Shown: positions 8,898 to 51,786, counted from the stretch's first letter. The stretch is 64,000 nucleotides of DNA from Spirochaetota bacterium (GCA_034190085.1 JAXHTS010000081.1:2541-66540); one strand, 5' to 3'. The notes: a model not told the origin generated them from the letters alone. Made by a program: numbers and translations.

Positions 8898-9164
8898 TTA
8901 AGTCTTTATTCTCAGATTGAATGCCCTTCTATTTGTGCTCCTCCTGTTTGAATTTCTTCTATCAAGTTTGTCTTTATTATCTGTCTCATATCTATTTTTA
9001 TGAACTCTCCGCTCTGATCTTCTCCTCTCTGAAATTCTTCTGTCAAAAACCCCGCCATTGAATTTGGAATATCGAAGCAGAATTAAAAAAATTATTATTA
9101 TTACAACTTCAATTGTTATAAACACAAAAAAATCCATATTATAGAAAAATAGATTATTATCCAT
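8898..9164 (-). CDS. small membrane protein with an Arg/Ser-rich basic cytoplasmic tail
   Basis: One TM helix, then RRISERRRSERR...DRRNSNRRSTNRR. No recognisable family. Confidence 0.35.
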   Translation of the reverse strand: MDNNLFFYNMDFFVFITIEVVIIIIFLILLRYSKFNGGVFDRRISERRRSERRVHKNRYETDNKDKLDRRNSNRRSTNRRAFNLRIKT

Positions 9165-9300
9165 GTCATGCCTTATCCAGCATTAGCAGTATGATAGATA
9201 AGATAATATAATTATCGTCTATCGATGAAAATAATATTAGAGTTAAATTCGTGGATTTTTAATTTTGTATCAATAAGTAAGAAATATCATCTGGTAATAT

Positions 9301-21974: not shown

Positions 21975-22094
21975 AATTTTGGATTATAATGTGAAATGCT
22001 TCTTCTGTTCCATAGAAAATAAAATTTAGAGATTATTTTAAAATATGAAATTTGAGAGACCCGGCAATATAGAGGAGTGAAAAGATATTACCTC

Positions 22095-23321: not shown

Positions 23322-23458
23322 GCTTATTGTATTCAAAGTAACTAATAGATATTTCTAACATTGCCTTAGCTTGCCCAAAATTAATATTATATTATGGATG
23401 AGAAGCGGATTTATGCTTCTCCCATGTAAACAAAAGTCTTTGGCGGGGTTTATCAAAC

Positions 23459-31512: not shown

Positions 31513-32904
31513 ATGAAAAGAATTTTTTTTGGATTATTGATTCTTTTTGTTGCCTTAAGCGCAGGGTGTAAAGGTGAGGGTGATGTTTTAGCTACCTATA
31601 AAGGCGGGGGTATCACTAGAGGTGAATTCTATGATTGGATTAAATCAAATCATTATGCAATGGATTCAATAATAAAGAGTAAGAAAAGGCAAAAGAATCG
31701 ATTAAGGATGATGATGATTGAGCGATTAACTGTAGAAAAGGCGAAAGGGGAAGGATTTGACAAGAGTGATGATTTTAAGGGAATTCATGATCGGATAACA
31801 GAATCTCAATTGATGAGTATTCTATACAAAAAGGAAATAAGAGAGAAAGCAAAATTTCAAGAGCCTGCAATAAGGGTAAGCCATATTTTGTTTAGAGTGA
31901 AAGAATATAAGGCAGAGAAGAATAAGCGGAAAAAGTTTGTTAAGGATGCTATTGATAAAACATTTGATAAGAAGATGGGGGAGGCTAAGGGGATAATTGA
32001 AAGGCTGAATAAGGGCGAAAGTTTTGAGGAGATAGCCAAAAAGCAATCGGATGATTTTTCAAAAAAGAAGGGTGGAGATATCGGATACATCACTCATGAT
32101 ATGATGCCTGCTGAATATTCAGAGATAGCCTTTTCATTAGATAAGGGAGAATATACAAAAGATCCGGTAAGAACAGCTAAGGGTGTTTATATAATTAAAG
32201 TTACAGATAAGAAGGAATTAACAGAGAAGAATATTGAGAATGTAATAGAGGATAAGGCTCAGGCTAAGAGAATAAAGGCAAGACTACAGAGAAAATACGC
32301 AAAGGACTATATTGATAGATTAACAGATGCCGATGATGTTGAAGAGCATTTTGACAAGGCGACAAGCAAAAAGAAAGAGGATGTAATATTCAAGGTCGGA
32401 GATAGGGTTTTTACTGTTTTGGACCTGAATAATCGCATTGAGAGAACCATGAGAAGGAGTACTGGTGGTCAGAAAAAATTGCCAGAGATTTCGGATAAAC
32501 AGAGGGAGGGATTAGCAAGAAGCATGTTTAAATTTGAAATCCTAAAGCGGGTTGCTCAAGAGAAGGGTATTGAGGGGGAGCCTGAATACAAAAAGGATAT
32601 TGATTCCAAATTGAATGCAGCCTTAGCAAGGGAATTCACAAAGAAGATTGGCTCATCAAATATTGCTGTGACAAGGGATGAGATGCTACAGGAGTATAAA
32701 AAGAATAAAGATAAAAGATATTATAAAATGGTAATGAAAAAAAAGAAGAGGGTGAAGGTTGTTGAGCCATTTGAGAAGGTAAAGGATAAAATTGAAAGAG
32801 TGCTTGTCAATAAAAAGCGTCGAGATTTTATGAAGCATTGGAAAGATGATTTATTGAAGGAGTATGAGTTTGCTATAGTAGAATCGAAACTGGAGGGCGA
32901 ATAG
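31513..32904 (+). CDS. parvulin-type peptidyl-prolyl cis-trans isomerase lipoprotein (PrsA/SurA-like chaperone)
   Basis: Lipoprotein signal (LSAGC). Central parvulin domain: IRVSHILFRV...GGDIGYITHDMMPAEYSEIAFSL...GVYIIKV. Confidence 0.7.
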   Translation: MKRIFFGLLILFVALSAGCKGEGDVLATYKGGGITRGEFYDWIKSNHYAMDSIIKSKKRQKNRLRMMMIERLTVEKAKGEGFDKSDDFKGIHDRITESQLMSILYKKEIREKAKFQEPAIRVSHILFRVKEYKAEKNKRKKFVKDAIDKTFDKKMGEAKGIIERLNKGESFEEIAKKQSDDFSKKKGGDIGYITHDMMPAEYSEIAFSLDKGEYTKDPVRTAKGVYIIKVTDKKELTEKNIENVIEDKAQAKRIKARLQRKYAKDYIDRLTDADDVEEHFDKATSKKKEDVIFKVGDRVFTVLDLNNRIERTMRRSTGGQKKLPEISDKQREGLARSMFKFEILKRVAQEKGIEGEPEYKKDIDSKLNAALAREFTKKIGSSNIAVTRDEMLQEYKKNKDKRYYKMVMKKKKRVKVVEPFEKVKDKIERVLVNKKRRDFMKHWKDDLLKEYEFAIVESKLEGE

Positions 32905-33043
32905 GCTAATCCTTTATAGATAATAACAAGTCTTTTAATTGGTTTCCTCCCCAATGAATGTGAGGTTGGGGAGGAGTTTATACAATTACTCATATTATCG
33001 ATTATTGAAACAATATTTGAAGAGAGGTCTCTTTTAATATAAA

Positions 33044-33295
33044 TCAATTTATTGCATTTGTCTTGGATTGGTAGGTCTCGTTTGGTATGATTGTGTGTTC
33101 CCCATCAATTGAGATAGCCTCAAAATTATCTACAATTAATCCAAGTTCTTTAGCAGAATCAATATAGAATAAAAGAACATTCTTAATCCTCCCAAGGGCT
33201 TTTTCCTTTGTTGGCCCATAACAATTGATATCTAACTCTTGACATGTGGCGATGAATTCATTTCCTGCTTCGATCAATTTTACAGATAATTTCAT
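33044..33295 (-). CDS. HicB-like / UPF0150-type antitoxin-fold small protein (orphan)
   Basis: 83 aa; the FIATCQELDINCYGPTKEKALGRIKNVL pattern resembles the HicB N-terminal domain. No HicA partner is visible. Confidence 0.4.
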   Translation of the reverse strand: MKLSVKLIEAGNEFIATCQELDINCYGPTKEKALGRIKNVLLFYIDSAKELGLIVDNFEAISIDGEHTIIPNETYQSKTNAIN

Positions 33296-33803
33296 ATTAT
33301 TTCCTAATATTACGGTTTGTGATGGAAGATATAGAGATTTGTATCTATCTATTTTTATTGCTAATAATTATATCGACTTGGATCAAAAGTTGCTTAACAG
33401 ATTTAATATCTTTTATCCCAAATGTGCATAGAGGCTTTTTGTCTTAGTATGTCATTTGGGGTAGGAATATAGGATTATTTACAAGTATTGAGATTGTATA
33501 TATATTAAAGCGAGTGTAGAATCCCTTCAAAATATTGGAGATGAAAATTTTTTGCAATTTTAATAATTATTTGTTGACTTGGAGCTACCACTTCACCTAT
33601 TAGGTGTATATTGTTCATCATCACGAAGATGGCAACATTGTTAATGATTATTCAAATTTTACCATAATTGTAGTGATGAGAGACTTCGGTCTTTGACCTT
33701 TTATTCACAATGATTTGATATGATATTCAGGATATTTTAAGTGGTTTAATTGAGTTAGCCTATTTCAATTTATCATAATTAGCCGCTTTATGGAGAGATA
33801 ATT

Positions 33804-35303
33804 ATGGAGACAATTCATTCTGCGACTCCACTATTCGCGCAACTAACTTCTCTGATTGGTGCATTCCTGGTTTTGTTTACAGGTGAGAAGAGACCTAATC
33901 TCCGTGAAACTTGGACTATTATAGCTTCTGTAGTTAAATTTGTGCTTTTGTTTTCAATAATATCTCATGTCATCGATGGTAACATTATTGAATTCACGCT
34001 AGTGGAGGTCTGTAAAGGGGTATCCCTTCAGTTTAGGATAGATGCTTTTGGGGCTATATTTGCTTTGCTCGCTTCCTTTCTATGGATTGTGGTTTCGATT
34101 TACTCTATTGGATACATGCGGGGATTGAAGGAGCATGCTCAAACTCGTTTTTATTTTTGTTTTGCTCTTGCAATTTTTAGCGCAACTGGCATAGCTATGG
34201 CAGGAAATCTATTAACCCTTTATATGTTTTATGAGATATTGACTGTCGCCACATTCTTGCTTGTAGCTCATAAGGAGACACCGGACGCGATCAAGTCTGG
34301 TAGAAAGTACCTTACTTACTTATTGTCAGGTGCGGCTTTAGTTCTTTTTTCCATGGGAATGACCTACCATCTTACAGGAACTCTAGATTTTATTCCAGGT
34401 GGATTTATTGGTGGGCATGGGTCTAATGCCCTTTTGAGTCTGGTCTTTGTATTGTTTATCATTGGATTTGGCACCAAGGCTGCCATAATGCCTTTTCATG
34501 AATGGCTTCCTTCGGCAATGGTGGCGCCTACCCCTGTAAGCGCATTGCTTCACGCTGTTGCAGTTGTAAAGGCTGGGGTTTTCTGCTGTCTTAGAATAAT
34601 CCTTTATGTTTATGGGCCGGATTTGCTGACAGACTTAGGACTATGGACAATATTAGCTATCTTTGTTTCTATTACTGTGATTGTTGCCAACTTCTTTGCT
34701 TTAACACAGGATCATTTGAAAAGGAGGTTGGCTTTTTCAACAATCAATAATCTTTCTTTAATTATTTTAGGCGCTGCTTTGATCTCTTCTGATGGGATCA
34801 AAGGGGCAATGCTTCATATCCCATTTCATGGATTTATGAAAATTACACTATTTATGTGTGCCGGAGCGATTCTTGTTAAAACACATAAAGAGAATATCAG
34901 TGAAATTGATGGCATAGGGAGGCAGATGCCCATAACAATGGCCGCTTTTACTATCGGCGCGGCAGGTCTGACAGGGCTGCCGCCTGTATGTGGATTGATT
35001 AGCAAGTGGTATCTATGCCTTGGGGCTTTGCAAGCCAATGCGATAATATTTTTATGTGTATTCCTCTTGAGTGCGATACTGGACGCGGCTTACTTCTTTC
35101 CTATAGTGTACAGTGCCTTTTTTAAGAAAGCTGCAAATGATATTAAATCGCATTTTGATGAGGCGCCTATATTTGCTGTGACTGCTATTGTGATTACAGC
35201 GGTTTTCTCGGTGCTTCTATTCCTGTTCCCTGATTTGATATTCAATTTTTACTCAATAGTTGGATTGGCAGTTGAATCCATAGTTTCTGGAGGAGGATTG
35301 TGA
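33804..35303 (+). CDS. Mrp/NuoN-family antiporter-like large subunit (MrpD-like, paralog 1)
   Basis: 499 aa, ~14 TM helices, conserved HAxxKAxxF/charged-Lys TM blocks of the NuoL/M/N-MrpA/D family. Confidence 0.8.
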   Translation: METIHSATPLFAQLTSLIGAFLVLFTGEKRPNLRETWTIIASVVKFVLLFSIISHVIDGNIIEFTLVEVCKGVSLQFRIDAFGAIFALLASFLWIVVSIYSIGYMRGLKEHAQTRFYFCFALAIFSATGIAMAGNLLTLYMFYEILTVATFLLVAHKETPDAIKSGRKYLTYLLSGAALVLFSMGMTYHLTGTLDFIPGGFIGGHGSNALLSLVFVLFIIGFGTKAAIMPFHEWLPSAMVAPTPVSALLHAVAVVKAGVFCCLRIILYVYGPDLLTDLGLWTILAIFVSITVIVANFFALTQDHLKRRLAFSTINNLSLIILGAALISSDGIKGAMLHIPFHGFMKITLFMCAGAILVKTHKENISEIDGIGRQMPITMAAFTIGAAGLTGLPPVCGLISKWYLCLGALQANAIIFLCVFLLSAILDAAYFFPIVYSAFFKKAANDIKSHFDEAPIFAVTAIVITAVFSVLLFLFPDLIFNFYSIVGLAVESIVSGGGL

Positions 35304-35518
35304 TGTTTAAGCTATTTAAATGGATATTTTATCTTTCAATTGCTATATGCTGCCTTTTGGGTTTTTATTTTCGTGCAGAACATCCCCACTTTTTTTGGCA
35401 GAAAATACCTGTCTACGATGCGGTTATGGGATTTGTTGGTTGTATAATAATTGTCATAGTGTCAAAAGCACTAGGTCACAACTGGTTACAGAAAGAGGAA
35501 GACTATTATGATAAATAA
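35300..35518 (+). CDS. small 2-TM membrane protein
   Basis: GGAGGAGGA RBS 4-7 nt upstream of the GTG/ATG start at 35300/35303; two hydrophobic helices. The overlapping 35320-35511 frame is rejected. Confidence 0.45.
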   Translation: MMFKLFKWIFYLSIAICCLLGFYFRAEHPHFFWQKIPVYDAVMGFVGCIIIVIVSKALGHNWLQKEEDYYDK

Positions 35519-37259
35519 TAACCTAGTACATCCAGCTCTAATATTTATTATTGGGGCTATTCTGCTTCCATTTCTTAAATGGAGAATCCTTAAGCAGTTG
35601 ATTGTGTTGCTTATTCCTGCTTTTGCTTTTATGATGATCTATCATATGCCAGAGGGTGTGTATTGGTGCTTTGATTTTTTAAACTATACCCTTGTATTTG
35701 GCAGGGTTGATAAACTTAGTCTCGTCTTTGGGTATATATTTGTGATTATGGCCTTTTTGGGTATGGTATATGCCATCAAGATTGAAGAATATGGTCAACA
35801 TGTAGCCGCATTAACATATATCGGAGGCACTTTAGGGGTAGTGTTCGCTGGTGATTTCTTCACTCTCTTTGTTTTTTGGGAATTGATGGCAATATCATCG
35901 GTTTTCTTGGTATGGTATGCTCGAAATGAGAGAGCATTAAAGGCTGGTTTTAGGTATTTGATGGTCCATCTTGTCGGGGGATGTGTTCTTCTTGCAGGTA
36001 TAATCATCGTAGTATCGGATACAGGCACAATTGCCTTTAGTAACATCGAGTTCGAGGGCTTAGGCCCAATACTCATACTTATCGGATTTATATTAAATGC
36101 AGCGGTACCTCCTCTTAGTGCATGGTTACCGGATGCATATCCAGAAGCTACTGTCACAGGCAGTGTATTCATGACGGCCTTCACAACCAAGAGCGCTGTC
36201 TATATTTTAGCTAGGACATTCCCTGGGGTTGAGATACTGGTTTGGTTAGGAGCCATTATGGCCCTTTATGGTGTTGTGTTTGCTGTTCTTGAAAACGATA
36301 TCAGAAGGTTGTTGGCATACCATATTATTAGCCAGGTGGGCTATATGGTGTGTGGTGTAGGTTTAGGTAGTGAGATGGCCATTAATGGTGCAAGTGCGCA
36401 TGCCTTTTGCCATATCTTATATAAGGCTCTCCTCTTTATGGGAGCTGGAGCTGTAATTCATGTAACAGGTAAGAATAAGATGACCGAACTTCAGGGAAGG
36501 GGTCTGTATAAGAGTATGCCGATTACCTTGACCCTCTATATGGTAGGTGCATTTTCAATCTCCGCTGTTCCCTTGTTTAATGGATTTATTAGTAAAACCA
36601 TGGTAGTAGCTGCGGCTGGCGAGTTGCACAGACCAGCTATTGAGTTGATGCTTCATCTCGCATCCGTCGGAACATTTCTTCATACAGGACTAAAGCTACC
36701 GTGGGGTACTTGGTTCGGGAAATCTGATAAGCCTGTAGGTGAGCTTAAGGCTGAAGAGCCTCCATTTAATATGCTCTTAGCAATGGGGATTGCTGCATTC
36801 CTATGTGTTTTAACCGGGATTTATCCAAGTGTGCTCTATAATATTTTGCCTTATGAGGTAACTTACCATCCCTACACCGCCTATCACGTGGTTGGAATGC
36901 TTCAGCTTTTGGTTTTAACTGGTGCTGCATTTTGGCTAATGATTGACAAATTGGGCGGAGAGCCTACGGTGAGCATGGATACAGATTGGTTTTATCGCAA
37001 GGGTGGTGAACAATTTATGCGGTTCTGCGAGGGGTTGAGCCTGTTCAGGATCGTTGTTCAAGAGTATGCTAAGCGTTTGGTAAACAGTGCAATTAAACTG
37101 AGTTATAATCCAATATATTATACAAGGTTGATATTCAATAAGAGTGAAACCGAAGTAGTTCATTTTGATGCGAATATCTATCGTAATGCCGTAGGGATCG
37201 GCGTTATGGTTTCACTGGCCCTGTTTTCACTATTCAGTATCATCTTTCTGGTGAGTTAA
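35508..37259 (+). CDS. Mrp/NuoL-family antiporter-like large subunit (MrpA/D-like, paralog 2)
   Basis: 583 aa; GASAHAFCHILYKALLFMGAGAVIH block typical of NuoL/MrpA/MrpD. Confidence 0.8.
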   Translation: MINNNLVHPALIFIIGAILLPFLKWRILKQLIVLLIPAFAFMMIYHMPEGVYWCFDFLNYTLVFGRVDKLSLVFGYIFVIMAFLGMVYAIKIEEYGQHVAALTYIGGTLGVVFAGDFFTLFVFWELMAISSVFLVWYARNERALKAGFRYLMVHLVGGCVLLAGIIIVVSDTGTIAFSNIEFEGLGPILILIGFILNAAVPPLSAWLPDAYPEATVTGSVFMTAFTTKSAVYILARTFPGVEILVWLGAIMALYGVVFAVLENDIRRLLAYHIISQVGYMVCGVGLGSEMAINGASAHAFCHILYKALLFMGAGAVIHVTGKNKMTELQGRGLYKSMPITLTLYMVGAFSISAVPLFNGFISKTMVVAAAGELHRPAIELMLHLASVGTFLHTGLKLPWGTWFGKSDKPVGELKAEEPPFNMLLAMGIAAFLCVLTGIYPSVLYNILPYEVTYHPYTAYHVVGMLQLLVLTGAAFWLMIDKLGGEPTVSMDTDWFYRKGGEQFMRFCEGLSLFRIVVQEYAKRLVNSAIKLSYNPIYYTRLIFNKSETEVVHFDANIYRNAVGIGVMVSLALFSLFSIIFLVS

Positions 37260-37436
37260 GTGAAGTCGTTATGGTGTTCGGAGGTCATGATGGAAGGATT
37301 ATATTATTATTACTACAATGAAATGTTTTGCTTGACCTTTCCCAATTGTTTAAATAGAGCTGCAAAAGAAGTAATAGTGTTTATATAGGTCTATGGGCTT
37401 GTATAGCGTTAAGATTTTATAAGATAAGGAAGTAAG

Positions 37437-37919
37437 ATGGCATTTACAGTTACGTTTATAATTTTATTGATTTTTTGGATATTAGTATCTGGTTTATTTG
37501 ACTACTGGCATTTTACGTTGGGAATAATATCATGTGCGTTGGTTGCATATATGTCAAGCAGTGTATTGTTTAAGAATAATAAAGTAAGGGGAAAGTCCTT
37601 CACGGAAGTATTACGATTATTAACATATTTGCCTTGGCTCTTGTACCAGATAATTTTGGCGAATCTACAAATTGCCTATTTAGCATTGCACCCAAGGATG
37701 CGGGAGCTTATAGACCCACACATAATAAAGTTTAGAACGAAACTTAAAAAAGATTTATCCCTTGTACTCTTTGCCAATTCGATAACACTAACTCCTGGTA
37801 CAATTACAGTACTTATTGAGGATGATCAATATTATGTTCATGCCATAAACAAATCTATTGCTGCAGATTTGCCAGGCAAGATGGAAGAAAAGGTAGCTCA
37901 GGTATTTTTGGAGGATTAG
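37437..37919 (+). CDS. mrpE: Na+/H+ antiporter subunit E (MrpE/MnhE; MbhA-like)
   Basis: 160 aa; LTPGTITVLIEDD motif. Confidence 0.75.
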   Translation: MAFTVTFIILLIFWILVSGLFDYWHFTLGIISCALVAYMSSSVLFKNNKVRGKSFTEVLRLLTYLPWLLYQIILANLQIAYLALHPRMRELIDPHIIKFRTKLKKDLSLVLFANSITLTPGTITVLIEDDQYYVHAINKSIAADLPGKMEEKVAQVFLED

Positions 37920-38186
37920 ATGGAGAATTTCTCTTTAATTATTGCGTTAGCAATAGGTTTTTTAATGATGTTAAGTATATACAGGGCGGTTTTTGGGCCT
38001 ACCATATTTGACAGAATAATCGGTTCCGGATTCATTGGCACCAAGACTATCATCCTTCTTGTTCTTATTGGATTTATCTATAATAGAATAGATATGTTTA
38101 TTGATTTAGCCATAGTATACTCAATCTTAAGCTTTACTGGAACCTTGTTATTTGCCAAGTACTTTGTGAGAAAAGGAGACAAGTAG
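37920..38186 (+). CDS. mrpF: antiporter subunit F (MrpF/MnhF; MbhB-like)
   Basis: 88-aa 3-TM protein immediately following mrpE (adjacent coordinates). Confidence 0.7.
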   Translation: MENFSLIIALAIGFLMMLSIYRAVFGPTIFDRIIGSGFIGTKTIILLVLIGFIYNRIDMFIDLAIVYSILSFTGTLLFAKYFVRKGDK

Positions 38187-38540
38187 ATGGTTATAGCGTC
38201 AAAGATTTTGATTGTGTCAGGTCTGTTTTTTCTGACTACTGGTGTAATAGGTTTTTTACGGTTTCCGGATTTTTATAGCAGAATGCACGCAACCGGGAAG
38301 GGGGATACTTTAGGGGCATTGCTTATTCTACTGGGATTTGCCCTGTATAATCTTCATCATGGATTTGTATGGCTTGATATCGTTCAAAGTGTTAAGCTTA
38401 TATTAATAGCAGTCTTCTGGATTATCGCTAGTCCTACGGCCACACATGCTCTGCTTAGATCCACATTCGAGTCAGGTGTTCAGCCGTGGACAAAGGATGG
38501 GAAGACTGTAATAGATTGGCCATTAAAAGAGGAGAAATAA
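38187..38540 (+). CDS. mrpG: antiporter subunit G (MrpG/MnhG; MbhC-like)
   Basis: FYSRMHATGKGDTLGALL motif. Confidence 0.75.
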   Translation: MVIASKILIVSGLFFLTTGVIGFLRFPDFYSRMHATGKGDTLGALLILLGFALYNLHHGFVWLDIVQSVKLILIAVFWIIASPTATHALLRSTFESGVQPWTKDGKTVIDWPLKEEK

Positions 38541-38786
38541 ATGATTTGGCAATTAGATATTATTCTCTTAATATTTGCAGCGATTGTAGCCATTGCTGCC
38601 ATAAATGTTAAAGATTTATTGGCTTCTGTTGCGCTCCTTAGCGCATTCAGCCTTTTCATGTGTCTAATATGGACGGAGATGGGGGCTGTGGATGTGGCAT
38701 TTACTGAAGCTACTGTAGGTGCTGGAGTAAGTACTGCATTTTTTATTGTTGCGGTATATAACACAACTAGGAGGTCAAAAGATTGA
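38541..38786 (+). CDS. MrpB N-terminal-domain protein (DUF4040; MbhD-like)
   Basis: 81-aa 3-TM protein in the position and with the character of MbhD. Confidence 0.55.
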   Translation: MIWQLDIILLIFAAIVAIAAINVKDLLASVALLSAFSLFMCLIWTEMGAVDVAFTEATVGAGVSTAFFIVAVYNTTRRSKD

Positions 38787-39055
38787 GGAAGCTACTATCC
38801 ATCATTATTATTCTTATAGCTGGGGGGGTGCTTGTATACGGAGTAAATGATTTCCCCAAATGGGCAGATCCAGATCAACCAGCCAGTACTCATGTTTCAC
38901 CAAAATATATTGAAGAGATTTATGAGAAGACAGCTGTCCCCAATATGGTAACTGCGGTTCTTGCTGACTATAGAGGCTATGACACCATGTTTGAGACCGC
39001 AGTTATATTTACAGCTGGCATTGCAGTTGTAATGTTATTAAGGAGAAGGTCATAA
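38783..39055 (+). CDS. MrpB/MnhB-like small subunit (MbhE-like)
   Basis: VTAVLADYRGYDTMFE block typical of MnhB. Confidence 0.6.
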   Translation: MRKLLSIIIILIAGGVLVYGVNDFPKWADPDQPASTHVSPKYIEEIYEKTAVPNMVTAVLADYRGYDTMFETAVIFTAGIAVVMLLRRRS

Positions 39056-39056
39056 A

Positions 39057-39515
39057 ATGATTAGAAAATATGATAACATTATAATCCAGACAGTTGGCAG
39101 GATTATGATACCATTTATGCAGGTTTACAGCCTTTATGTGTTGGTTCATGGGCATGGAAGTCCTGGCGGAGGTTTTCAGGGAGGTTGTATCCTGGCTGCA
39201 AGCTTTATCCTAATGGCGGTAGCCTATGATATAGAGGAGATAAACAGACGCTTTAAGGAGAGGAGGGTTCTACTTCTTTGCAGCCTGGGTGTTTTTCTTT
39301 ATGTCGGAACTGGTTTTCTGTGTATGTTTTGTGGTGGTAATTTTTTAGATTATGGCTTTCTTAGTAAGATTTTGCCAACGGATGAGATTATGGCGAGGTA
39401 CTATGGGATGGCGATAATAGAGACTGGTGTACAGATTACGGTTATGGCTGTGATGGTCACTATATTTCTTGATTTAGCAACAAGTGGAAAACATGAGGGT
39501 ATGTTAAAGGAATAG
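39057..39515 (+). CDS. mrpB: MrpB/MnhB subunit (MbhF-like)
   Basis: GHGSPGGGFQGG motif typical of MnhB. Confidence 0.7.
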   Translation: MIRKYDNIIIQTVGRIMIPFMQVYSLYVLVHGHGSPGGGFQGGCILAASFILMAVAYDIEEINRRFKERRVLLLCSLGVFLYVGTGFLCMFCGGNFLDYGFLSKILPTDEIMARYYGMAIIETGVQITVMAVMVTIFLDLATSGKHEGMLKE

Positions 39516-39519
39516 GATT

Positions 39520-39897
39520 ATGGAATATATTATAGGTAAAATTAATTATTGGATCTATATAGTTCTAATACTTACCGGTTTTTTTGCCATGATGGCAAAG
39601 GGCAATCTTATGAAGAAGCTGATTGGTATGAATATCTTTCAATGGTCAATAATTCTCTTTTTTGTCTCCATCGGAGCGAAGAAGGGTGCTACTGTGCCTG
39701 TTCTTGGCGGACATGGCGCTGTGCATGATGTTATTCATGCGGTAGATTACATAAATCCATTGCCCCATGTTCTTATGCTTACTGCTATTGTAGTTGGTGT
39801 GGCAACAACTGGAATTGCATTGACACTGCTAATTGTGCTGTATAAGAAGTATGGTACCTTAGAAGAAAATGAAATAATTGAGGAGTTGAAAAGATGA
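39520..39897 (+). CDS. mrpC: antiporter subunit C (MrpC/MnhC, NuoK-like; MbhG-like)
   Basis: 125-aa 3-TM protein, NuoK-like. Confidence 0.75.
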   Translation: MEYIIGKINYWIYIVLILTGFFAMMAKGNLMKKLIGMNIFQWSIILFFVSIGAKKGATVPVLGGHGAVHDVIHAVDYINPLPHVLMLTAIVVGVATTGIALTLLIVLYKKYGTLEENEIIEELKR

Positions 39898-41411
39898 TTA
39901 TGGAACAATTGCCAGCACTTATCGTTGTCACTCCTTTAATTCTTGCTTTTATTGTTCCTATTGTAGGATGGTGGAATAAGAAGTGGTGTTATCCAATAGT
40001 GTTTATTTCGCTTTTAATTAGTTTCTTATCCTCAATTGGCATTATCCATACTGTCATCACTGAGGATCAGCCGATTCACTATTACATGGGTGGTTGGCCA
40101 CCTCCCTGGGGTATTGAATATGTTATTGATTATTTAAATGCACTTGTGCTAGTGTGCGTTGCTTTTGTTTCCTGGGTAGTTTCCCTTTATGCGAAGAGGT
40201 CTGTTGAGAAGGAACTTCCCGAATCAAAGGTGCCTTTATTCTATACACTCCTGTTGCTGCAGGTGGCAGGTCTGTTAGGGATTTGCGCAACCGGCGATAT
40301 GTTTAATCTCTATGTGCTTTTAGAGATTGCCTCTTTTGCAGCATATGCAATTATAGCAATGGGAGAGCGGGGTTCTGTCTTTGCCTCTTTTCGGTATGTG
40401 ATCTATGGTACAATCGGAGCCTGCCTCTATCTCATCGGAGTGGGGTATCTATATATTAGTACTGGTTCTCTTAATATGGCGGATTTATCTCAAATTTTGC
40501 CTGAGTTAATAAATTCTAAAGCAATATTAGTTGGATTTGCTTTTTTCTTGGTGGGTGTTGCGATAAAAATGGGTATTTTCCCCCTTCATTCATGGTTGCC
40601 GGATGCATATACCCTAGCTCCATCTGCTGTAAGTTCATTGCTTGCTCCATTATTTACCAAGGTCGGTGCATATGTTATTATCAGATTGATGTTTACTGTG
40701 TTTGAGCCTTCATTTTCAATAGATGATTACCCGGTGACAGAAGTATTGGGTTGGATATCAGCAATTGGAATAATTTTTGCCGGAGTAATGGCACTTTCTC
40801 AGACTGATTTGAAACGGATGTTTTCATATTTGATTGTAGCGGAGATGGGTTATATAGTGATTGGTATCGCTTCAGCAAACAGGCTAGGATTAACCGGTTC
40901 CATACTTCATATCGTCAATGATATATTTATGATGACATGCTTGTTTACTGCAGTTGGTGCAATCTATTATCAGACAGGTACCAGAAATATCTATGAACTT
41001 AAGTGTTTGCATCGAAAAATGCCTATTACCCTGGCTGTCTTTGTAGTTGGGGCTTTGTCAGTTGTTGGGGTTCCCCCTTTCTGTGGCTTCTTTAGTAAAT
41101 GGTATTTGATACTGGGCACGATTCAATCAAAGGAATGGATGCTTTTAACAGTGCTACTAATTAGCAGTTTAATCAATGCGGTTCTTTTCTTCCGTGTGCT
41201 TGAAAATGCCTATATTGAACCACGTGAAGAGGAAGATCATGCTCATCATCATGATGAAGTACATCATAGTGTTGTTGCTTTAGATGAAGTGCCTATGAGT
41301 ATGCTTATGCCAATGATAGTAATTGCTGTTGGTATTATTCTTCTTGGAATTTTTAGTGGAAATATTGTTAATAATATAATTGATTTTGCCATACCTTCAT
41401 CATTATTATAA
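39894..41411 (+). CDS. mrpD: antiporter-like large subunit (MrpD / MbhH-like, paralog 3) with His-rich C-terminal tail
   Basis: 505 aa; NuoM/N-family blocks; C-terminus EPREEEDHAHHHDEVHH. Confidence 0.8.
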   Translation: MIMEQLPALIVVTPLILAFIVPIVGWWNKKWCYPIVFISLLISFLSSIGIIHTVITEDQPIHYYMGGWPPPWGIEYVIDYLNALVLVCVAFVSWVVSLYAKRSVEKELPESKVPLFYTLLLLQVAGLLGICATGDMFNLYVLLEIASFAAYAIIAMGERGSVFASFRYVIYGTIGACLYLIGVGYLYISTGSLNMADLSQILPELINSKAILVGFAFFLVGVAIKMGIFPLHSWLPDAYTLAPSAVSSLLAPLFTKVGAYVIIRLMFTVFEPSFSIDDYPVTEVLGWISAIGIIFAGVMALSQTDLKRMFSYLIVAEMGYIVIGIASANRLGLTGSILHIVNDIFMMTCLFTAVGAIYYQTGTRNIYELKCLHRKMPITLAVFVVGALSVVGVPPFCGFFSKWYLILGTIQSKEWMLLTVLLISSLINAVLFFRVLENAYIEPREEEDHAHHHDEVHHSVVALDEVPMSMLMPMIVIAVGIILLGIFSGNIVNNIIDFAIPSSLL

Positions 41412-41755
41412 AGATTACGATGAAGGACATTCTATTTGCTAATGTTCTCAACATTTAATAGTATGCATAATTATAAATAGATGTTTTTAACACTCTGTTT
41501 ATATGCTAGTAGTACCCGCCAATTCTTCAAGGGTCTAAAAGTAATTGACGTGTTTAGTTTGTTGAGTGTATAATTATGTTCACAAGTTAGTTGCCACTTT
41601 AATCTTCTAAATAGAGAAGAGGTTATTGGCTGCAAGCAGATATGAGAGACACATAGCCTTATTATGAGGAGACGTGTCTTGTCATTATCAACCGAGATTG
41701 AGAACCTTTACCTTTCTGTGAAATTATATATTAAATTTTAATTAAATAAAAGATT

Positions 41756-42022
41756 TTGAATAGGAAGAATAAAAGCACTAGAAGACTAATATTTGGATAT
41801 TCAACAATAGGAATTCAGTTAGCCGTCACTCTATTGCTTTTTGTATATGGAGGATATAGGTTAGATAATTATTATAAAACAACTCCCTTGTTTGTCATTG
41901 CGGGTACAATTATTGGAATGATTGCAGGCTTTTACAATTTGCTTCAGGGCATAAAGCAGATTGAGGAAAGTACGAAAAGAGAAAAAGAAGAAGTTAATAA
42001 TACAAAAAGCAAATGGCTATGA
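41756..42022 (+). CDS. AtpZ/AtpI-like small membrane protein preceding the F-ATPase operon
   Basis: 88 aa, two TM helices, positioned immediately upstream of atpB, as for pfam ATPase_gene1-type proteins. Confidence 0.5.
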   Translation: MNRKNKSTRRLIFGYSTIGIQLAVTLLLFVYGGYRLDNYYKTTPLFVIAGTIIGMIAGFYNLLQGIKQIEESTKREKEEVNNTKSKWL

Positions 42023-42081
42023 TTATTTAGTTTTTTCATAATTAACTATGTTTAAATTTTAATATTTAAGAGGAATTTAAT

Positions 42082-42942
42082 ATGCTTCAGCTTTTGCACA
42101 CTATGAAGTATTTAATAGTATCTGGTGGTGGCCATGGTGAAGAGGAATCTGTTAGCGAAGTTGTTATTCATCACCTTACGGATCATGTTATTACCTCAGG
42201 TTTTATAGGTAAAATAAACGAGCAATTTCTCAACACAAAGCTTTTTGGCATCTTTGATATGAGGATTACCCGGTGGGTAATTATGATGTGGATAGTATCA
42301 ATTTTATGTATGTTAATTTTTATACCTCTTGCTAAAAAAATTAAGAAGGAAAAGAATGGTTCAAAATCTAAATGGATTAATCTGTGGGAGGTCCTCATCG
42401 GTTTTATTCACGATGATATAGTAGAAACGAATTTTGACGCACATTATGTAAAAAAGGCTATGCCATATATGTGCAGCATATTTTTCTTTATTTTATTTTG
42501 TAATTTGTTGGGTCTTGTGCCGGGGATGTCAACCGCTACTGGTAACCTTGCAGTAACTGGCGGATTAGCCGCATTTACGCTTATAGGAATGATTGGTGTT
42601 GGGATGATTAAACAGGGTCCTTTATGGATTTTCACGGGGATAGTTCCCAAGGGTATTCCCTTCTTTCTATTCCCCTTAATGTGGGTAATAGAGTTGTTGG
42701 GTCTGTTTATTAAACCCTTTGCACTGACTATTCGACTTTTTGCGAATATGACGGCAGGGCATGTAGTTGTTATTATCTTTTTATTTATTTCAATCATGTT
42801 TCACAGTCTATTAGTCGGAATAGGATCAGTTACTGGCGCACTGATGATATACTTACTTGAACTATTAGTATCTTTTATTCAAGCCTATATTTTTACTTCA
42901 CTTTCAGCAATGTTTATTGGGCAGTCAATGCATGCTCATTGA
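42082..42942 (+). CDS. atpB: F0F1 ATP synthase subunit a
   Basis: RLFANMTAGH (the conserved Arg-containing helix) and C-terminal ...SLSAMFIGQSMHAH. Has an N-terminal extension. Confidence 0.85.
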   Translation: MLQLLHTMKYLIVSGGGHGEEESVSEVVIHHLTDHVITSGFIGKINEQFLNTKLFGIFDMRITRWVIMMWIVSILCMLIFIPLAKKIKKEKNGSKSKWINLWEVLIGFIHDDIVETNFDAHYVKKAMPYMCSIFFFILFCNLLGLVPGMSTATGNLAVTGGLAAFTLIGMIGVGMIKQGPLWIFTGIVPKGIPFFLFPLMWVIELLGLFIKPFALTIRLFANMTAGHVVVIIFLFISIMFHSLLVGIGSVTGALMIYLLELLVSFIQAYIFTSLSAMFIGQSMHAH

Positions 42943-42983
42943 GTGAGTTTTAAATTATAATAATTTGATTACAGGAGGAATAG

Positions 42984-43211
42984 ATGGAAGGTTTAGGTCT
43001 ATCTTACTTTGCAGCGGGTATTGGTGCGGGCTTAATAGTGCTTGGCGCTTCGTTTGGAATTGGAAAATTAGCAAGTACAGCTCTGGAGAGTACAGCCCGT
43101 CAACCAGAGAGTAGTGGTGATATTAGAACAACAATGATTATTGCTGCTGCATTAATAGAGGGTTTTACTTTTTTTGCTTTGGTTGTAACATTTATGTTAG
43201 CTACTAAATAG
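42984..43211 (+). CDS. atpE: F0F1 ATP synthase subunit c (H+-type)
   Basis: 75-aa hairpin with the ARQPE loop and a carboxylate in AALIEGFTFFAL. No Q/S-T/Y Na+-binding constellation. Confidence 0.9.
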   Translation: MEGLGLSYFAAGIGAGLIVLGASFGIGKLASTALESTARQPESSGDIRTTMIIAAALIEGFTFFALVVTFMLATK

Positions 43212-43275
43212 TATGCTTTAGTAGCGAGGGCTTTTACCAATGAAGTCCATAAATTGAAAATATGGATAGTGAAAT

Positions 43276-43794
43276 ATGGATGCTATAAGGGAAGGGCTTT
43301 TAAAAGTTGATCCGGGATTATTCCTTTGGACAGTAATAACTTTTCTTGTTTTGTTCTTGATATTATGGAAAGCTGCTTGGAAACCGATAATCGAGGCGCT
43401 TGGAGCTAGAGCAGAAAAGGTGAAGGGCGACATTGAAAGGGCTGAAAGCAATCGTATTGAGGCTGAAAAACTACTAGCTCAGCATAAAGAGATGATGGAT
43501 AAGGCTAAGGATGAAGCGAACAACATTATTACAGAGAGCAGATCTCATGCTGAAAAGGTAAAGAGTGATATGATTGAGAAGGCCAACGAGGAATCAAAGG
43601 AGATTATTGAAAAGGCTAAAAGGGAAATCAATTTGGCAAAGGATAAGGCTATAATTGATTTGAAAGCTGAAGTGGTTAATTTATCTACGGATATTGCATC
43701 TAAGATAATAACCACAAATTTAAAACCAGAGGATCAAAGGGATTTGGTAGAAGAGGTTTTGAAGAATTTAGAATCACAGAAATTTGTTCAATAA
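43276..43794 (+). CDS. atpF: F0F1 ATP synthase subunit b
   Basis: N-terminal TM helix then a long charged coiled coil. Confidence 0.85.
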   Translation: MDAIREGLLKVDPGLFLWTVITFLVLFLILWKAAWKPIIEALGARAEKVKGDIERAESNRIEAEKLLAQHKEMMDKAKDEANNIITESRSHAEKVKSDMIEKANEESKEIIEKAKREINLAKDKAIIDLKAEVVNLSTDIASKIITTNLKPEDQRDLVEEVLKNLESQKFVQ

Positions 43795-43997
43795 TTGCTT
43801 ATTTATAGGAGAACGCGTAATAAATTATTATCAAGTTCCGCATAAAAGATTGTGAGCATTTATTAGAATGAGTATACAGAAGTAAGGAATTTGGCACTAT
43901 TTAATGTGTATAGTAGAGAAATATAGTTATTAACGAATAAACTCCCACAAGTTTGGGAGTAAATAATAATTAAATCACTAATTATAGGGATAGTAGT

Positions 43998-46095
<2,098 letters not shown>

Positions 46096-46125
46096 TCGTA
46101 GAAATGAATAGAAAGGATTGAGGTT

Positions 46126-47013
46126 GTGGCAACTCAAAAAGAAATAAGGAAGAGAATACAGTCTGTATCTACTACAAAGAAGATTACTAAGACCATGGAA
46201 ATGGTTGCAACTGCAAAGATGAAGAAGATGCAGGACCGCCTTAATGCCACCAAACCATATTCATTAAGAACAAAAGAGTTAATCTCTCATATAAAAGAAT
46301 CTGGAATAATGGATAGTGATATACCTCTGATGAAAGAGAGAGAGGATCCCAATCGTGTGCTTTTAATTATGATAACGGGTAATCGTGGGCTTTGCGGCGG
46401 ATATAATATGAATGTGATTGATAATACCCTCAGTTTGAAAGACAAACTCGAAAGGGATGATGGGAGAGAGGTCTTACTCTATGCGATAGGGAAAAAGGGT
46501 AAAAATTATTTTGATTATATGGATATTCCGATTTATCAATCTGTTCAGAATAGAGAGGATAAATTAACCTTTAATGATGCCTCAGAGTTTGGTGATGAAT
46601 TAATAGATTTATTCTTAAAGGGCGAGATAGATGATGTTTATGTATCATATACTGGGATTGTCTCATCAACTTCTCAGAAGCCAGCAATTATAAGATTATT
46701 GCCCATAACATATACAATGGATGTTGATAGTGAAGATTTATTAACTAAGATGCCAGTGCAATATATCTTTGACCCAGAGCCATATAAGGTTTTGTCATCA
46801 TTATTGCCGTTATATATTAAAGTAAGTATCTATACATATTTGTTAGAATCGGGATTTTCAGAACAATTTGCACGAAGGGTCGCAATGAAAAATGCAACAG
46901 ATGCGGCTATTGATATGGTAAAGGAACTAACTGTTAAATATAACAGAGCCAGACAGGCAAAAATAACAAATGAGATAGCGGAGATTGTGGGCGGCGCATC
47001 AGCGCTGGAATAA
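46126..47013 (+). CDS. atpG: F0F1 ATP synthase subunit gamma
   Basis: N-terminal IRKRIQSVSTTKKITKTMEMVATAKMKK and C-terminal ...ITNEIAEIVGGASAL. Confidence 0.9.
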   Translation: MATQKEIRKRIQSVSTTKKITKTMEMVATAKMKKMQDRLNATKPYSLRTKELISHIKESGIMDSDIPLMKEREDPNRVLLIMITGNRGLCGGYNMNVIDNTLSLKDKLERDDGREVLLYAIGKKGKNYFDYMDIPIYQSVQNREDKLTFNDASEFGDELIDLFLKGEIDDVYVSYTGIVSSTSQKPAIIRLLPITYTMDVDSEDLLTKMPVQYIFDPEPYKVLSSLLPLYIKVSIYTYLLESGFSEQFARRVAMKNATDAAIDMVKELTVKYNRARQAKITNEIAEIVGGASALE

Positions 47014-48450
<1,437 letters not shown>

Positions 48451-48594
48451 GATACAGGATTATTCGTAATAATTTAGGTATCTGTTGTTTAGCTACTATT
48501 GTATAGTAAATGATGAGTATTCATAAAAGAGCAAGCGGAATGGTTAGGGCCTGCCTTACTATTAAAGTATATAATAACTTAAAAAGATATAGAT

Positions 48595-48993
48595 ATGGAT
48601 AGAAAAATAGAATGTAGTATAGTTACCCCAGATAGGATTGTATTTGAGGGTCAGGCTGATCTTATGGTAATTCAGGCGCATGATGGAGAGGTAGGTTTTA
48701 TGTATAATCATGCGCCATTTATATCCGAATTAGGGAATGGTGAGGCCAGGATGCGCAATGGTGATCATACTGAGTATCTTATTGTGGAAGGTGGTTTTGT
48801 CGAAATACGAGATAATACACTGATCGTGCTAGCAGAAAATGCTTACAGGAAGGATGAGCTTTGTAAAGCTGAGATTCAGGAGAGTATTGAGGAAATAAAG
48901 AATATCCCAAGAATCATTGACACTGAAGAGGGATTAAGGCTTGAAACTGAGCTTAAAAAACAGAAGGCACGGTTAAAAGTCGCTTCCAGGTGA
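48595..48993 (+). CDS. atpC: F0F1 ATP synthase subunit epsilon
   Basis: 132 aa, beta-sandwich plus helical hairpin pattern, last gene of the operon. Confidence 0.85.
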   Translation: MDRKIECSIVTPDRIVFEGQADLMVIQAHDGEVGFMYNHAPFISELGNGEARMRNGDHTEYLIVEGGFVEIRDNTLIVLAENAYRKDELCKAEIQESIEEIKNIPRIIDTEEGLRLETELKKQKARLKVASR

Positions 48994-49596: not shown

Positions 49597-51786
49597 TTGA
49601 TGAAGAATAAGATGATAAAAGAAGGGGACAGCATTGAATTAGACTTTTATGAGAAGAGATTTGAAGAGTATGCAGAGTTTCCAGAAAAGAAAGCTGATAG
49701 TGAACTGATTGGGGAGGATGGCGAACTAAATGAGGAAAGTGATGGAATTAGTGAATATGGGGAGTTGGAGGAGATTGCGGATTTTAGAAATGAGGTTGTA
49801 GAATCAATTCCAATAATTGATGAACTTGTTGATAGCACTTTTTTTGATGGAGGGCATATAGACAGAAGAGTCATTGATACAATTGATGTTGAATTGTTAT
49901 CTGCTGAGGTTGATACTCTTACACAAATAGTGGGAGTTGAGGATGCGAACTCATTGATTTCATCTAATGAAGATGATGATGAGACACGAGATAGGGTAGA
50001 ATATACAAATCTCGTTGAAGAAGAGAATTTTGCAGCAGTTGCATTTGCTGATAGGTCAATTGAAGATGTCAAAGATACTGAGGTATTGTCAGAAGATGAG
50101 ACAATTACTTTATCTACAGATGAGTTAGAGAACATCATAAATGATCCAGAGCTGGATGATTCTTATTCCTCGTCAAAAGAAATTGAACAAAATAATTATG
50201 AGGAAGCGAAACAGGGGAATAAAAATAGTGTCAATTTGAATGAAACACTAAATAATAAGAACAAAAATACGATTACCCTAGAGGTGCCCAATTGTGTATT
50301 AGATAAATTACCAGAAGATTTTAACATGTCTGAACTTAGTATGGTTAATTTAAAGGAGGCTGAAGAGATTGCAAATGAGGATTTTCAATTTACAACTGAG
50401 GATGAGTTTATCAAAGAGTTAGATGAATTAGATCTTATGCCGATACTTAATACTACTAATGAAGAACTTAAAGATGATGTAATTACGGATGGATATGTTG
50501 AAGAGAAGGATGTGGTTGGGAAGAGTGAGGAGAGAATGACAGATTTAGAAAAATCAAAAAAGGTATCAGTGAAACATGAAGAGATTGATCAAATGATCTT
50601 AGAGGAGGTTGCTAACTCCAATGGTATGGATTTAAAAGGAAATGAGAACCAATCAATTATAGAAGAAATACAAGATGAAAGTATAATAGTGATAGATGAT
50701 ACTCCTGAGGAATTAAATAAGAAAGAGGTGAAAGAGGGTACAGAAATTATTGAATCAGTTGAAGAAAACCAAGAGGGTGAAATGGATTTATCTGTGGGGG
50801 ATATGGAAGAGCCTATTGTCAATGATAGATTAGAATTACATGATGATGAGGGAAATGAATCATTTGATTTGCCTACGGGATCGTTAAATATTGATAAAAC
50901 TGAAGATAATTTATATATAATTGATGATGAGGTGATGGTAGAGGATGAGGAGAGTGAGTCTATATTTGAGGATGACGAGTTAGAAAAGATAAGTACTGGG
51001 ATTGTAGAAATAGCGGAGGGTGAAGCAATAATTCTAACTGAGACAGATGCACAGGAGAATCTTAGAGGTCTTGGTGGTATAACAAGTGATATTACCCCTG
51101 ATAGTGAAGATATGTTTAATGATACAGGGGAAAAATTTGTAATGAAAGATGAAGAAATAGACTATATTGATCGTTCATTTACAGGAAAGGGATTTGGGGA
51201 TTATATCAAGGAGGATAAGGGGGACGATGATGAGGTTGAGGATAAGGGGATTGATTCCATGTCAGAATTATTAGGTCTTAAACTTGATGAGATGGATGTA
51301 ATTGAAGACAAGATATATGAAAATGGAAATGGAGTGAATGATCATTATAAACTTGCCAATACCCTAACGGCTGTATCAGGTGAGACTAAAAGAGACGATG
51401 TTCCCTTTAGGGAATGCACATATCTACTTCCAATGGATAAGAGTTTAATAGGCGAAGAGAAAAGAAGCATTGAAGTTGATTTGTTATCATCAAGCGCATT
51501 AGTTGTTGAGGAGGACGTAAAGGAGATCATTAGAAGATTGGAGAGAAAGTCTAGGAAGAGGGTGGGTGATACAGAGGATATAGCTGATATAAGCGATGAT
51601 ATTATAATAATTGAAGAAGTTTCCGAAAAGGATGAGCGACAGGAGCTAGATCAAAAAGAGATGAAAAAGTTATTGAAATACCTAAATGGACTTTTAGAGA
51701 AATTGCCCGAGAATGTAATAGAGAATTTTGCCAAATCTGAGTATTATGAGCTATATAAAAAAGCATTAGAAGATTCTGATGGTTAA
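49597..51786 (+). CDS. very large, extremely acidic (D/E-rich) low-complexity protein; function unknown
   Basis: 729 aa dominated by E/D/I/N with no recognisable catalytic motif. The C-terminal ~60 aa are more ordered (LLKYLNGLLEKLPENVIENFAKSEYYELYKKAL). Its stop abuts the start of the next gene. Confidence 0.6.
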   Translation: MMKNKMIKEGDSIELDFYEKRFEEYAEFPEKKADSELIGEDGELNEESDGISEYGELEEIADFRNEVVESIPIIDELVDSTFFDGGHIDRRVIDTIDVELLSAEVDTLTQIVGVEDANSLISSNEDDDETRDRVEYTNLVEEENFAAVAFADRSIEDVKDTEVLSEDETITLSTDELENIINDPELDDSYSSSKEIEQNNYEEAKQGNKNSVNLNETLNNKNKNTITLEVPNCVLDKLPEDFNMSELSMVNLKEAEEIANEDFQFTTEDEFIKELDELDLMPILNTTNEELKDDVITDGYVEEKDVVGKSEERMTDLEKSKKVSVKHEEIDQMILEEVANSNGMDLKGNENQSIIEEIQDESIIVIDDTPEELNKKEVKEGTEIIESVEENQEGEMDLSVGDMEEPIVNDRLELHDDEGNESFDLPTGSLNIDKTEDNLYIIDDEVMVEDEESESIFEDDELEKISTGIVEIAEGEAIILTETDAQENLRGLGGITSDITPDSEDMFNDTGEKFVMKDEEIDYIDRSFTGKGFGDYIKEDKGDDDEVEDKGIDSMSELLGLKLDEMDVIEDKIYENGNGVNDHYKLANTLTAVSGETKRDDVPFRECTYLLPMDKSLIGEEKRSIEVDLLSSSALVVEEDVKEIIRRLERKSRKRVGDTEDIADISDDIIIIEEVSEKDERQELDQKEMKKLLKYLNGLLEKLPENVIENFAKSEYYELYKKALEDSDG

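Follow-up and report, generated by a model that had tools for sequence, protein, structure and literature searches.

The eleven genes at positions 33804-41411 of a 64,000-nucleotide stretch of DNA from a Spirochaetota bacterium (GCA_034190085.1, JAXHTS010000081.1:2541-66540; the whole stretch is referred to below as the window) quite probably encode one stand-alone antiporter of the group 3 Mrp type (CPA3), i.e. a cation/proton antiporter that works without redox input. Its most likely activity, to judge from the encoded subunits, is Na+(K+)/H+ exchange at the expense of the proton-motive force, the usual set of proton channels being enlarged by a third. This reading builds on the gene content of the cluster, the homology of its products, the residues that are conserved in them, the fold of one of the large subunits and the co-occurrence of the eleven genes across phyla, and it is from these that we infer a single complex of all eleven proteins, as well as the membrane order of the subunits, the ions transported and the stoichiometry.

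An earlier interpretation of the same DNA (the sequence-only reading) had listed eleven open reading frames (ORFs), and all of these were recovered, on the plus strand and at the positions it gave; every product is a membrane protein. Families were assigned by means of Pfam and NCBIfam profiles. The last eight genes form the core of the cluster, namely mrpE (MbhA-like; 37437-37919; PF01899, E-value 2.3e-33), mrpF (MbhB-like; 37920-38186; PF04066, 8.9e-12), mrpG (MbhC-like; 38187-38540; PF03334, 7.4e-25; TIGR01300, 84.7 bits and thus over the cut-off), an MbhD-like gene for the first part of the MrpA C-terminal domain (38541-38786; PF13244, 3.3e-18), an MbhE-like gene for the second part of that domain (38783-39055; PF20501, 1.1e-9), mrpB (MnhB; MbhF-like; 39057-39515; PF04039, 2.4e-31; NF009162, 123.9 bits, over the cut-off), mrpC (MbhG/NuoK-like; 39520-39897; PF00420, 3.4e-18; NF005624, 95.6 bits, over the cut-off) and the gene of a 505-aa antiporter-like subunit, here called D3, which is mrpD proper (MbhH/MbsH-like; 39894-41411) and has MrpD models as its best NCBIfam matches. 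The matches to PF01899, PF04066, PF03334, PF04039, PF00420 and PF00361 all lie over the gathering scores and the NCBIfam Mrp models agree with them. The spacing from mrpE through D3 is 0, 0, 0, -4, +1, +4 and -4 bp, which bears out the tight coupling that had been described. MrpF contains a GP..DR motif that we take to be the counterpart of D32/R33 of MrpF. The genes of the cluster are also present on short Logan contigs.

Upstream of the core, and in keeping with the sequence-only reading, two large subunits of 499 and 583 aa (D1 and D2) are found around a small protein with two transmembrane helices (s72). D1 (33804-35303; PF00361, 1.5e-56; PF00662, the NuoL N-terminus) is an antiporter-like subunit of the MrpA-N/NuoL type without a lateral helix. 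It overlaps by 1-4 bp with s72 (35300-35518, with a GTG start at 35300 or an ATG start at 35303; 71/72 aa), a conserved membrane protein without a family match, and s72 in turn overlaps by 11 bp with D2 (35508-37259; PF00361, 5e-48). D2 is again of the MrpA-N/NuoL type, and it extends into a fifteenth transmembrane helix (TM15), a lateral helix and TM16. It scores 709.7 bits against the equivalog model NF009310 ('Na(+)/H(+) antiporter subunit D'; cut-off 564), and an identical protein is already present at NCBI under that very name.

As a stand-in for a reference phylogeny of the large subunits we compared them with PDB chains by phmmer bit score and by rank in Foldseek. By this measure the best sequence matches of D1 are MbhH, MbsH, MrpA and NuoL, the closest sequences to D2 are MbsH' and MrpA, and D3 is matched best by MbsH (234 bits), MbhH (201) and MrpD (185). 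An AlphaFold2 model of D2 built with 37 homologues (pLDDT 77.8, pTM 0.79) has a 14-helix core with the TM2-3 beta-hairpin, followed by helices at residues 458-482, 494-543 (a long one of ~50 residues) and 555-582 that correspond to TM15, the lateral helix and TM16; in the Foldseek ranking of the model the MrpA chains 7qru_A and 6z16_A come first, and NdhF, NuoL and ND5 follow. Because D2 thus resembles MrpA-N/NuoL and carries the lateral helix, MrpA should be regarded as split in this cluster, and not as absent. On the evidence of profile matches and model, its N-terminal pump domain would be represented by D2 and/or D1 and its C-terminal domain by the MbhD-like and MbhE-like proteins, which match ~600-700 and ~705-790 of the MrpA NCBIfam models, respectively. 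This is in line with the known correspondence of MbhD and MbhE together to the MrpA C-terminal domain (subunit correspondences from PMC7419157). The sequence-only reading had the order of the subunits right, and one label has to be changed: what it took for a pair of MnhB genes is the MbhE-like gene followed by MnhB. One whole pump subunit and s72 are then surplus to the split MrpA.

Group 3 Mrp systems have no full-length mrpA, that is a gene in which the pump domain is fused to the MrpB-like C-terminal domain, and their large subunits are all of the MrpD type, with more than one copy in some cases (PMC8415708). The window cluster has the corresponding gene content, since homologues of MrpE/F/G/B/C/D occur together in it; a full-length mrpA is lacking, the C-terminal part of MrpA being encoded by two genes and the large subunits separately (499, 583 and 505 aa), with the nuance that the fold of D2 is MrpA-N-like and includes a lateral helix. 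A genetically characterised relative is the stand-alone mrpEFGBB'CD of Pyrococcus furiosus (PF1147-53), deletion of which affects Na+-coupled pH homeostasis (PMC8415708). It shares with the window the core order E-F-G-B-B'-C-D, the lack of mrpA and of a redox module, and the homology to MbhA-H. It differs in having one antiporter-like subunit where the window has three (D1 and D2 are added, as is s72), and in the window the MrpA-C part comes as two genes, MbhD-like and MbhE-like. The order MbhA-H, which the sequence-only reading considered special for its resemblance to the membrane-bound hydrogenase (MBH), is therefore simply the layout that defines group 3 Mrp, the P. furiosus cluster included (PMC8415708).

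The conservation of the genome context supports this assignment. We scanned one genome per species with D2, which yielded 564 confirmed relatives, and analysed the best 80 of these 564; five further loci (L082-L086) were added by exact protein look-up for close relatives of D2, and the window proteins were mapped onto all loci. Both ends of the cluster are in view in 22 cases, and all 22 carry E-F-G-MbhD-(MbhE)-B-C-D3 as well as D1-s72-D2, contiguously in most of them. The hosts encompass Desulfobacterota, Nitrospirota, ANME-2/Methanoperedens archaea, a "Nanoarchaeia" bin and others (Chadwick 2022, on ANME, makes no mention of Mrp). With the same core order in 22/22 related clusters, the order turns out to be common among Mrp operons, which is the outcome that the sequence-only reading had itself named as refuting its view of the order as unusual.

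The eleven genes occur in at least three circular orders. The commonest is a tight operon E-F-G-MbhD-MbhE-B-C-D3-D1-s72-D2 (for instance in L021, L025, L032 and L082, where the spacing of D3 and D1 ranges from a 17-bp overlap up to a gap of ~19 bp), and in total D1 directly follows D3 within one operon in 15 of the 22 complete clusters, with gaps of -17 to ~+90 bp where these were read out. The window and locus L083 have D1-s72-D2 first and E through D3 thereafter, the gap between the two units in L083 being 245 bp. The third rotation, s72-D2-E..D3-D1, is found in L009, L010, L011, L013 and L015. It may be asked whether such rotations arose by tandem duplication and subsequent loss. Two irregularities among the relatives can be mentioned here: L016 encodes a fusion of MrpE with MnhB (372 aa), and in L012 the D3 (mrpD) homologue is spread over four overlapping ORFs (6741-8238), which points to either a pseudogene or frameshift errors in a long-read assembly.

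The window encodes no catalytic partner for the cluster, in agreement with the sequence-only reading. We used NuoJ, K, A, B, D and EF of locus L045 as tblastn queries against the window and against all loci with flanks of up to 10 kb (E<=1e-3). The queries found their counterparts in 47 complex-I-type loci; none of them had a homologue in the 64-kb window, so that the window cluster is not a complex I, and none, NuoB/NuoD (MbhJ/L) included, was detected in any Mrp-type locus. Members of this family thus generally come without a catalytic module, the window locus being no exception, and the comparison that the sequence-only reading drew with respiratory-complex-like assemblies lacking a redox input becomes unnecessary. 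Pfam searches with twenty other large ORFs of the window gave no hydrogenase; they identified pyruvate kinase, acetate kinase, phosphotransacetylase, CoA-transferases, signalling proteins and one ferredoxin-domain protein. A connecting subunit of the NuoH/MbhM or MbhI type was likewise not found among the ORFs of 33804-41411, all of which belong to Mrp families or are s72 according to Pfam and NCBIfam.

The residues that line the proton path in this superfamily were followed in alignments of homologues (72 of D1, 80 of D2 and 21 of D3) taken from Mrp-type and complex-I-type loci alike. E144, K225, H250, K256, H338, H342, K346 and K401 are invariant in D1, as are E144, K225, H339 and K402 in D3, where K256 is kept in 20 of the 21 sequences. 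The set that makes up the path (the TM5 Glu, the TM7 Lys, the TM8 Lys/His and the TM12 Lys) is thus complete in D1 and D3. It is atypical in D2: here E125, K228, H298, H302, K306 and K363 are invariant (80 homologues), and the position of the TM7 lysine is taken by an asparagine, Asn197, in 80/80. In HMMER alignments the residue that faces N197 is the TM7 Lys, both in MbsH' and in Anoxybacillus flavithermus MrpA. In MbsH' this lysine, K217, is listed within the charged axis (review PMC8165549), and in Bacillus MrpA its equivalent, K223, is essential (PMC5703873). D2 also has an invariant His154 of its own in TM6, and it is tempting to speculate that this residue offsets the lost lysine.

Taken together, the above suggests the following mechanism. 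The core (MrpE, MrpF, MrpG, the MbhD-like and MbhE-like proteins, MrpB, MrpC and D3) would be equivalent to the stand-alone Mrp of P. furiosus and to the membrane arm of MBH, and D1-s72-D2 would be a three-gene extension cassette that adds two subunits of the MrpA-N/NuoL type to it. D2 would be placed distally, so that its lateral helix and TM16 run back over the neighbouring subunits and hold D3, D1 and D2 together. Protons would enter via D3, D1 and possibly D2, coupled along the conserved Glu/Lys/His axis as in the solved Mrp structures, and Na+ (or K+) would leave via the module of MrpE/F/G, the MbhD/E-like proteins, MrpB and MrpC. A third proton channel could then raise the number of H+ per Na+ and make the exchanger more electrogenic, which might allow Na+ expulsion or acidification of the cytoplasm at a low proton-motive force or a high pH; such a ratio would be of use to an anaerobe that lives by fermentation at a small proton-motive force, or under alkaline or saline conditions. 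In this respect we note a row of genes for pyruvate kinase (with a PEP-utiliser domain), acetate kinase and long-form phosphotransacetylase elsewhere in the window (20223-25561), which is consistent with a fermentative, acetate-producing lifestyle.

Several points weigh against one eleven-protein antiporter. The assembly as such would be deduced from the co-occurrence of the genes, and the sequence by itself does not reveal which ion is exchanged. A gap of 177 bp (37260-37436) parts D1-s72-D2 from mrpE in the window, as does the one of 245 bp in L083, and it is perhaps the boundary of two transcription units. In the closest relative, L086 (D1 77% and D2 76% identical), the triad stands by itself, flanked by a tRNA-like contig end on one side and by genes for sensor kinases on the other, which implies that the cassette can be encoded apart from the core and could conceivably function apart from it. 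As D2 is devoid of the TM7 lysine, proton conduction by this subunit is uncertain. Finally, the search for a redox module in this genome was confined to the 64-kb window.

The first two of these observations on gene arrangement, together with the modularity of a triad that is found in complex I operons too (see below), could also be explained by two systems: a complete group 3 antiporter of eight subunits, comparable to the one of P. furiosus, for which a single MrpD suffices (PMC8415708), and a separate two-pump transporter or module made of D1-s72-D2, acting alone or with other partners. It fits with such a separation that 'MrpEFGBBBCD' and 'MrpDD' are listed apart for another genome (PMC6305446). 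We nevertheless deem two systems unlikely. D1 comes right after D3 in the same operon in most of the complete clusters, as described above, and the circular permutation leaves the full gene set together; even the rotation seen in L009 and its like, which parts D1 from s72-D2, keeps all genes within the cluster. Moreover, the triads in complex I operons are clearly a set of subunits of a larger complex and no autonomous transporter, which makes one complex more likely than two. A second candidate for a triad on its own, on a Nitrospiraceae chromosome (L024, 8033-9752), was rejected because D1 is truncated there: a 415-aa ORF on the minus strand cuts it to 166 aa. The locus has no other mrp or nuo genes within 10 kb and looks like a decayed cassette.

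The neighbourhood of the ATP synthase genes gives rise to another alternative. Downstream of D3 lies the F1Fo operon atpZ-B-E-F-H-A-G-D-C (41756-48993, plus strand; PF09527 for atpZ, 7.6e-16; PF02823 for atpC; NCBIfam for atpB, atpE and atpF; Pfam gene calls on locus L088), just as the sequence-only reading had it, and the latter went on to propose a dedicated ion-gradient generator or converter that feeds the enzyme. The antiporter would then be co-regulated or co-transcribed with F1Fo and, while ATP is made or hydrolysed, interconvert the gradients of H+ and Na+ for it. The two operons share a strand, and a terminator scan found no terminator-like site in the gap between D3 and atpZ, nor in the one between D2 and mrpE, the totals of the scan being at the level of shuffled sequence. 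However, the gap of 344 bp (41412-41755) holds a promoter-like site, TTGACG-18-TATAAT (41545-41574), of which 11 out of 12 positions match a sigma-70-like site.

The c subunit (42984-43211) also speaks against such a role. Na+-binding c subunits employ Gln32, Glu65, Ser66, Thr67 and Tyr70 as ligands (numbering of Ilyobacter tartaricus). The window protein has I26, E59, G60, F61 and F64 and an RQPE loop, and if it is placed by this loop against the I. tartaricus sequence, Ile, Gly, Phe and Phe presumably stand at the positions of Gln32, Ser66, Thr67 and Tyr70. The lack of this set of ligands predicts an ATP synthase coupled to H+, which would have no need of a Na+ gradient made by Mrp.

With respect to genome context, atp genes adjoin the cluster in 4 of the 22 complete loci, all from one other lineage, Ca. 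Anaeroferrophillacea and related metagenome-assembled genomes (MAGs). In these loci (L016, 377-3931; L018; L019, 167-3552; L020) atpF'-atpF-atpH-atpA lie divergently and directly upstream of mrpE, at 108-319 bp. No atp genes occur beside the cluster in the other 18 loci (L082 among them), nor beside the lone triad of L086. L083, which has the gene order of the window, was considered as a test of the adjacency: an atpZ-like ORF is absent from the 550 bp that follow D3, which is weakly informative at best because the contig ends there in a fragment of an IS630-like transposase. This fragment (9096-9281, minus strand; PYSPDLNPIEKMW...) is the C-terminus of an IS630-family-like transposase and comes right after mrpD. 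Since the placement in the second, unrelated lineage is unlikely to be accidental if it arose independently, and two independent mrp-atp adjacencies are more than chance easily gives, a loose co-regulation may exist, and the repeated placement offers a minor lead on the co-regulation of ion homeostasis and energy conservation. The dedicated link of the sequence-only reading comes out weak all the same: we hold co-regulation or co-transcription for the purpose of gradient interconversion to be quite improbable, the role of a Na+-gradient 'feeder' is not supported, and the atp operon is probably a separately transcribed, H+-coupled neighbour of the mrp cluster.

That the cluster is the membrane arm of a redox-driven MBH-, MBS- or complex-I-like respiratory complex with a catalytic module elsewhere or of an unknown kind, to which the order identical to MbhA-H, the fact that D3 and D2 most resemble two subunits of the sulfane reductase MBS (MbsH and MbsH', respectively), the service of the cassette to a redox complex in other phyla and the restriction of the search to the window could be taken to point, is very hard to reconcile with the absence of NuoB/NuoD homologues from the window and from the surroundings (10 kb) of the Mrp-type relatives, with the assignment of every ORF of the cluster, none of them a connecting subunit, and with the fact that group 3 Mrp systems standing alone are a recognized class for which a phenotype in ion homeostasis has been demonstrated (PMC8415708).

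The sequence-only reading was, in short, correct in what it observed and largely not in how it interpreted this, and it overlooked two aspects of the preferred single antiporter, namely the MrpA-N type of D2 with its lateral helix, and the occurrence of D1-s72-D2 as a cassette that substitutes for NuoL in a four-pump complex I. For this 'green' complex I, PMC9040806 (see also PMC7419157) describes two MrpD-like subunits that replace NuoL, with the lateral helix on MrpD2; credit for the four-pump complex is given to Degli Esposti & Martinez-Romero 2016 and Chadwick et al. 2018. In our loci the triad is found inside complex I operons of Acidobacteriota, Planctomycetota, Thermodesulfovibrionia and others (47 loci; L045 in detail), in the order nuoJ-nuoK-[D1-s72-D2]-nuoM-nuoN-nuoA-nuoB-..-nuoD-nuoEF, that is at the exact place where nuoL is expected. 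The window proteins D1, s72 and D2 are 45-50%, 28-47% and 53-63% identical to the products of these nuo-operon triads. Besides the homologous cassette, the window and the four-pump complex I have in common the conserved residues, among them the Asn at the position of the TM7 Lys of D2, and a similar length of the lateral-helix tail; they differ in the company of the cassette, which is NuoA/B/C/D/H/I/J/K/M/N in complex I and MrpEFG/B/C/D, without nuo genes, in the window. The D2 tail (lateral helix and TM16) has a median length of 104.5 residues in Mrp-type loci versus 104 in those without Mrp genes nearby (mostly complex-I-type), and this equality suggests that the lateral helix extends over equally many neighbouring subunits in either context.

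The small protein s72 accompanies the two large subunits throughout: it always lies between D1 and D2, in Mrp-type and complex-I-type loci alike. Its family comprises 391 representative clusters at E<=1e-3, with members of ~70-90 aa and two helices that share the motif P..YG..SC..II.VSK..G..WLM..EDYYD; searches of Pfam, NCBIfam and the PDB sequences gave no match. The notion that s72 donates a helix missing from D2 was rejected because the core of the D2 model is complete, with all 14 helices and the TM2-3 hairpin.

We tentatively consider D1-s72-D2 to be a portable 'pump-extension cassette' that can dock on either MrpD or NuoM, with the three-pump Mrp as the evolutionary source of the four-pump version of complex I. 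The cassette would in that case raise the H+/Na+ stoichiometry of the antiporter, by way of a terminal subunit with Asn in TM7 and the invariant, D2-specific His154 close by, and with a need for s72; as a whole, this proposal falls somewhat short of being evenly balanced with its negation. In a rough neighbour-joining tree the D2 of the window sits among Mrp-type sequences of Desulfobacterota, and the clade of complex-I-type D2 sequences adjoins those of the Mrp-type loci L021, L025 and L032, a position that would be compatible with a transfer from Mrp to complex I. Part of the idea is probably contained already in Chadwick et al. 2018.

Among other described systems, the MAG of candidate phylum NPL-UPA2 has 'MrpEFGBBBCD, MrpDD', which was read as a Na+/H+ antiporter (PMC6305446), and Ca. 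Nitrospira alkalitolerans has a group 3 Mrp with extra MrpD/NuoL-like genes (PMC7784846). As far as the published gene names go, both match the window in having E, F, G, three MrpB-domain genes, C, D and two further large subunits; the extra subunits, the small protein between them and the link with complex I were left unanalysed in these papers. The presence of three pumps, more than a standard Mrp contains, was thus rightly noted in the sequence-only reading and is not new. The canonical group 1/2 Mrp (mrpABCDEFG; 6z16, 7qru, 7d3u) has all the subunit families of the window, and the MrpA-N fold with its lateral helix is similar to D2; the window differs in the split of MrpA, the addition of D1 and s72, the order of the genes and the lack of the TM7 lysine in D2. 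Cyanobacterial group 3 Mrp clusters, as summarized in PMC5703873, are of the form mrpCD1D2EFGAB or mrpCDCDEFGBB, and for the Aphanothece cluster Na+/H+ antiport was demonstrated (Fukaya et al. 2009, cited there). Going by gene names, these resemble the window in having several MrpD-like genes before EFG and split MrpB-domain genes, and they differ from it in gene order and in the duplication of MrpC.

The window locus is, then, a fairly ordinary example of a group 3 Mrp to which MrpD-like subunits have been added. Many anaerobes have this type, which is annotated already, and by itself the locus adds little, being one more instance from an uncultured Spirochaetota MAG. The family as such is of more use, with a moderate value as a model. 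To our knowledge, an Mrp with three antiporter subunits has never been purified, solved or assayed, and the three-pump Mrp would offer a redox-free system in which to study, for the complex I superfamily, how the number of pump subunits sets the ion stoichiometry. The workings of a terminal subunit that lacks the TM7 lysine, and the role of the 72-aa subunit, could be learned from it as well. As the four-pump complex I contains the same cassette, the answers should be transferable.

Regarding regulation, an AT-rich non-coding stretch of ~500 bp (33296-33803) with several promoter-like sites precedes D1. An Rfam scan of 32800-42200, which covers this 500-bp region and both gaps, gave no riboswitch or leader, the lone match being at chance level (E 0.26). 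In L086 (1-7636) a likewise AT-rich spacer of ~550 bp follows the tRNA-like end and genes for PAS/HisKA sensor kinases lie downstream of the triad; in L082 a sensor kinase and a sigma-54 response regulator come after D2, which together with the kinases of L086 hints at two-component control. Elsewhere in the window, two large ORFs (49597-51786, 729 aa; 61417-63312, minus strand, 631 aa) are without a Pfam match at E<=1e-5, and the GC content is 29% over 60-64 kb as compared to ~38% in the rest.

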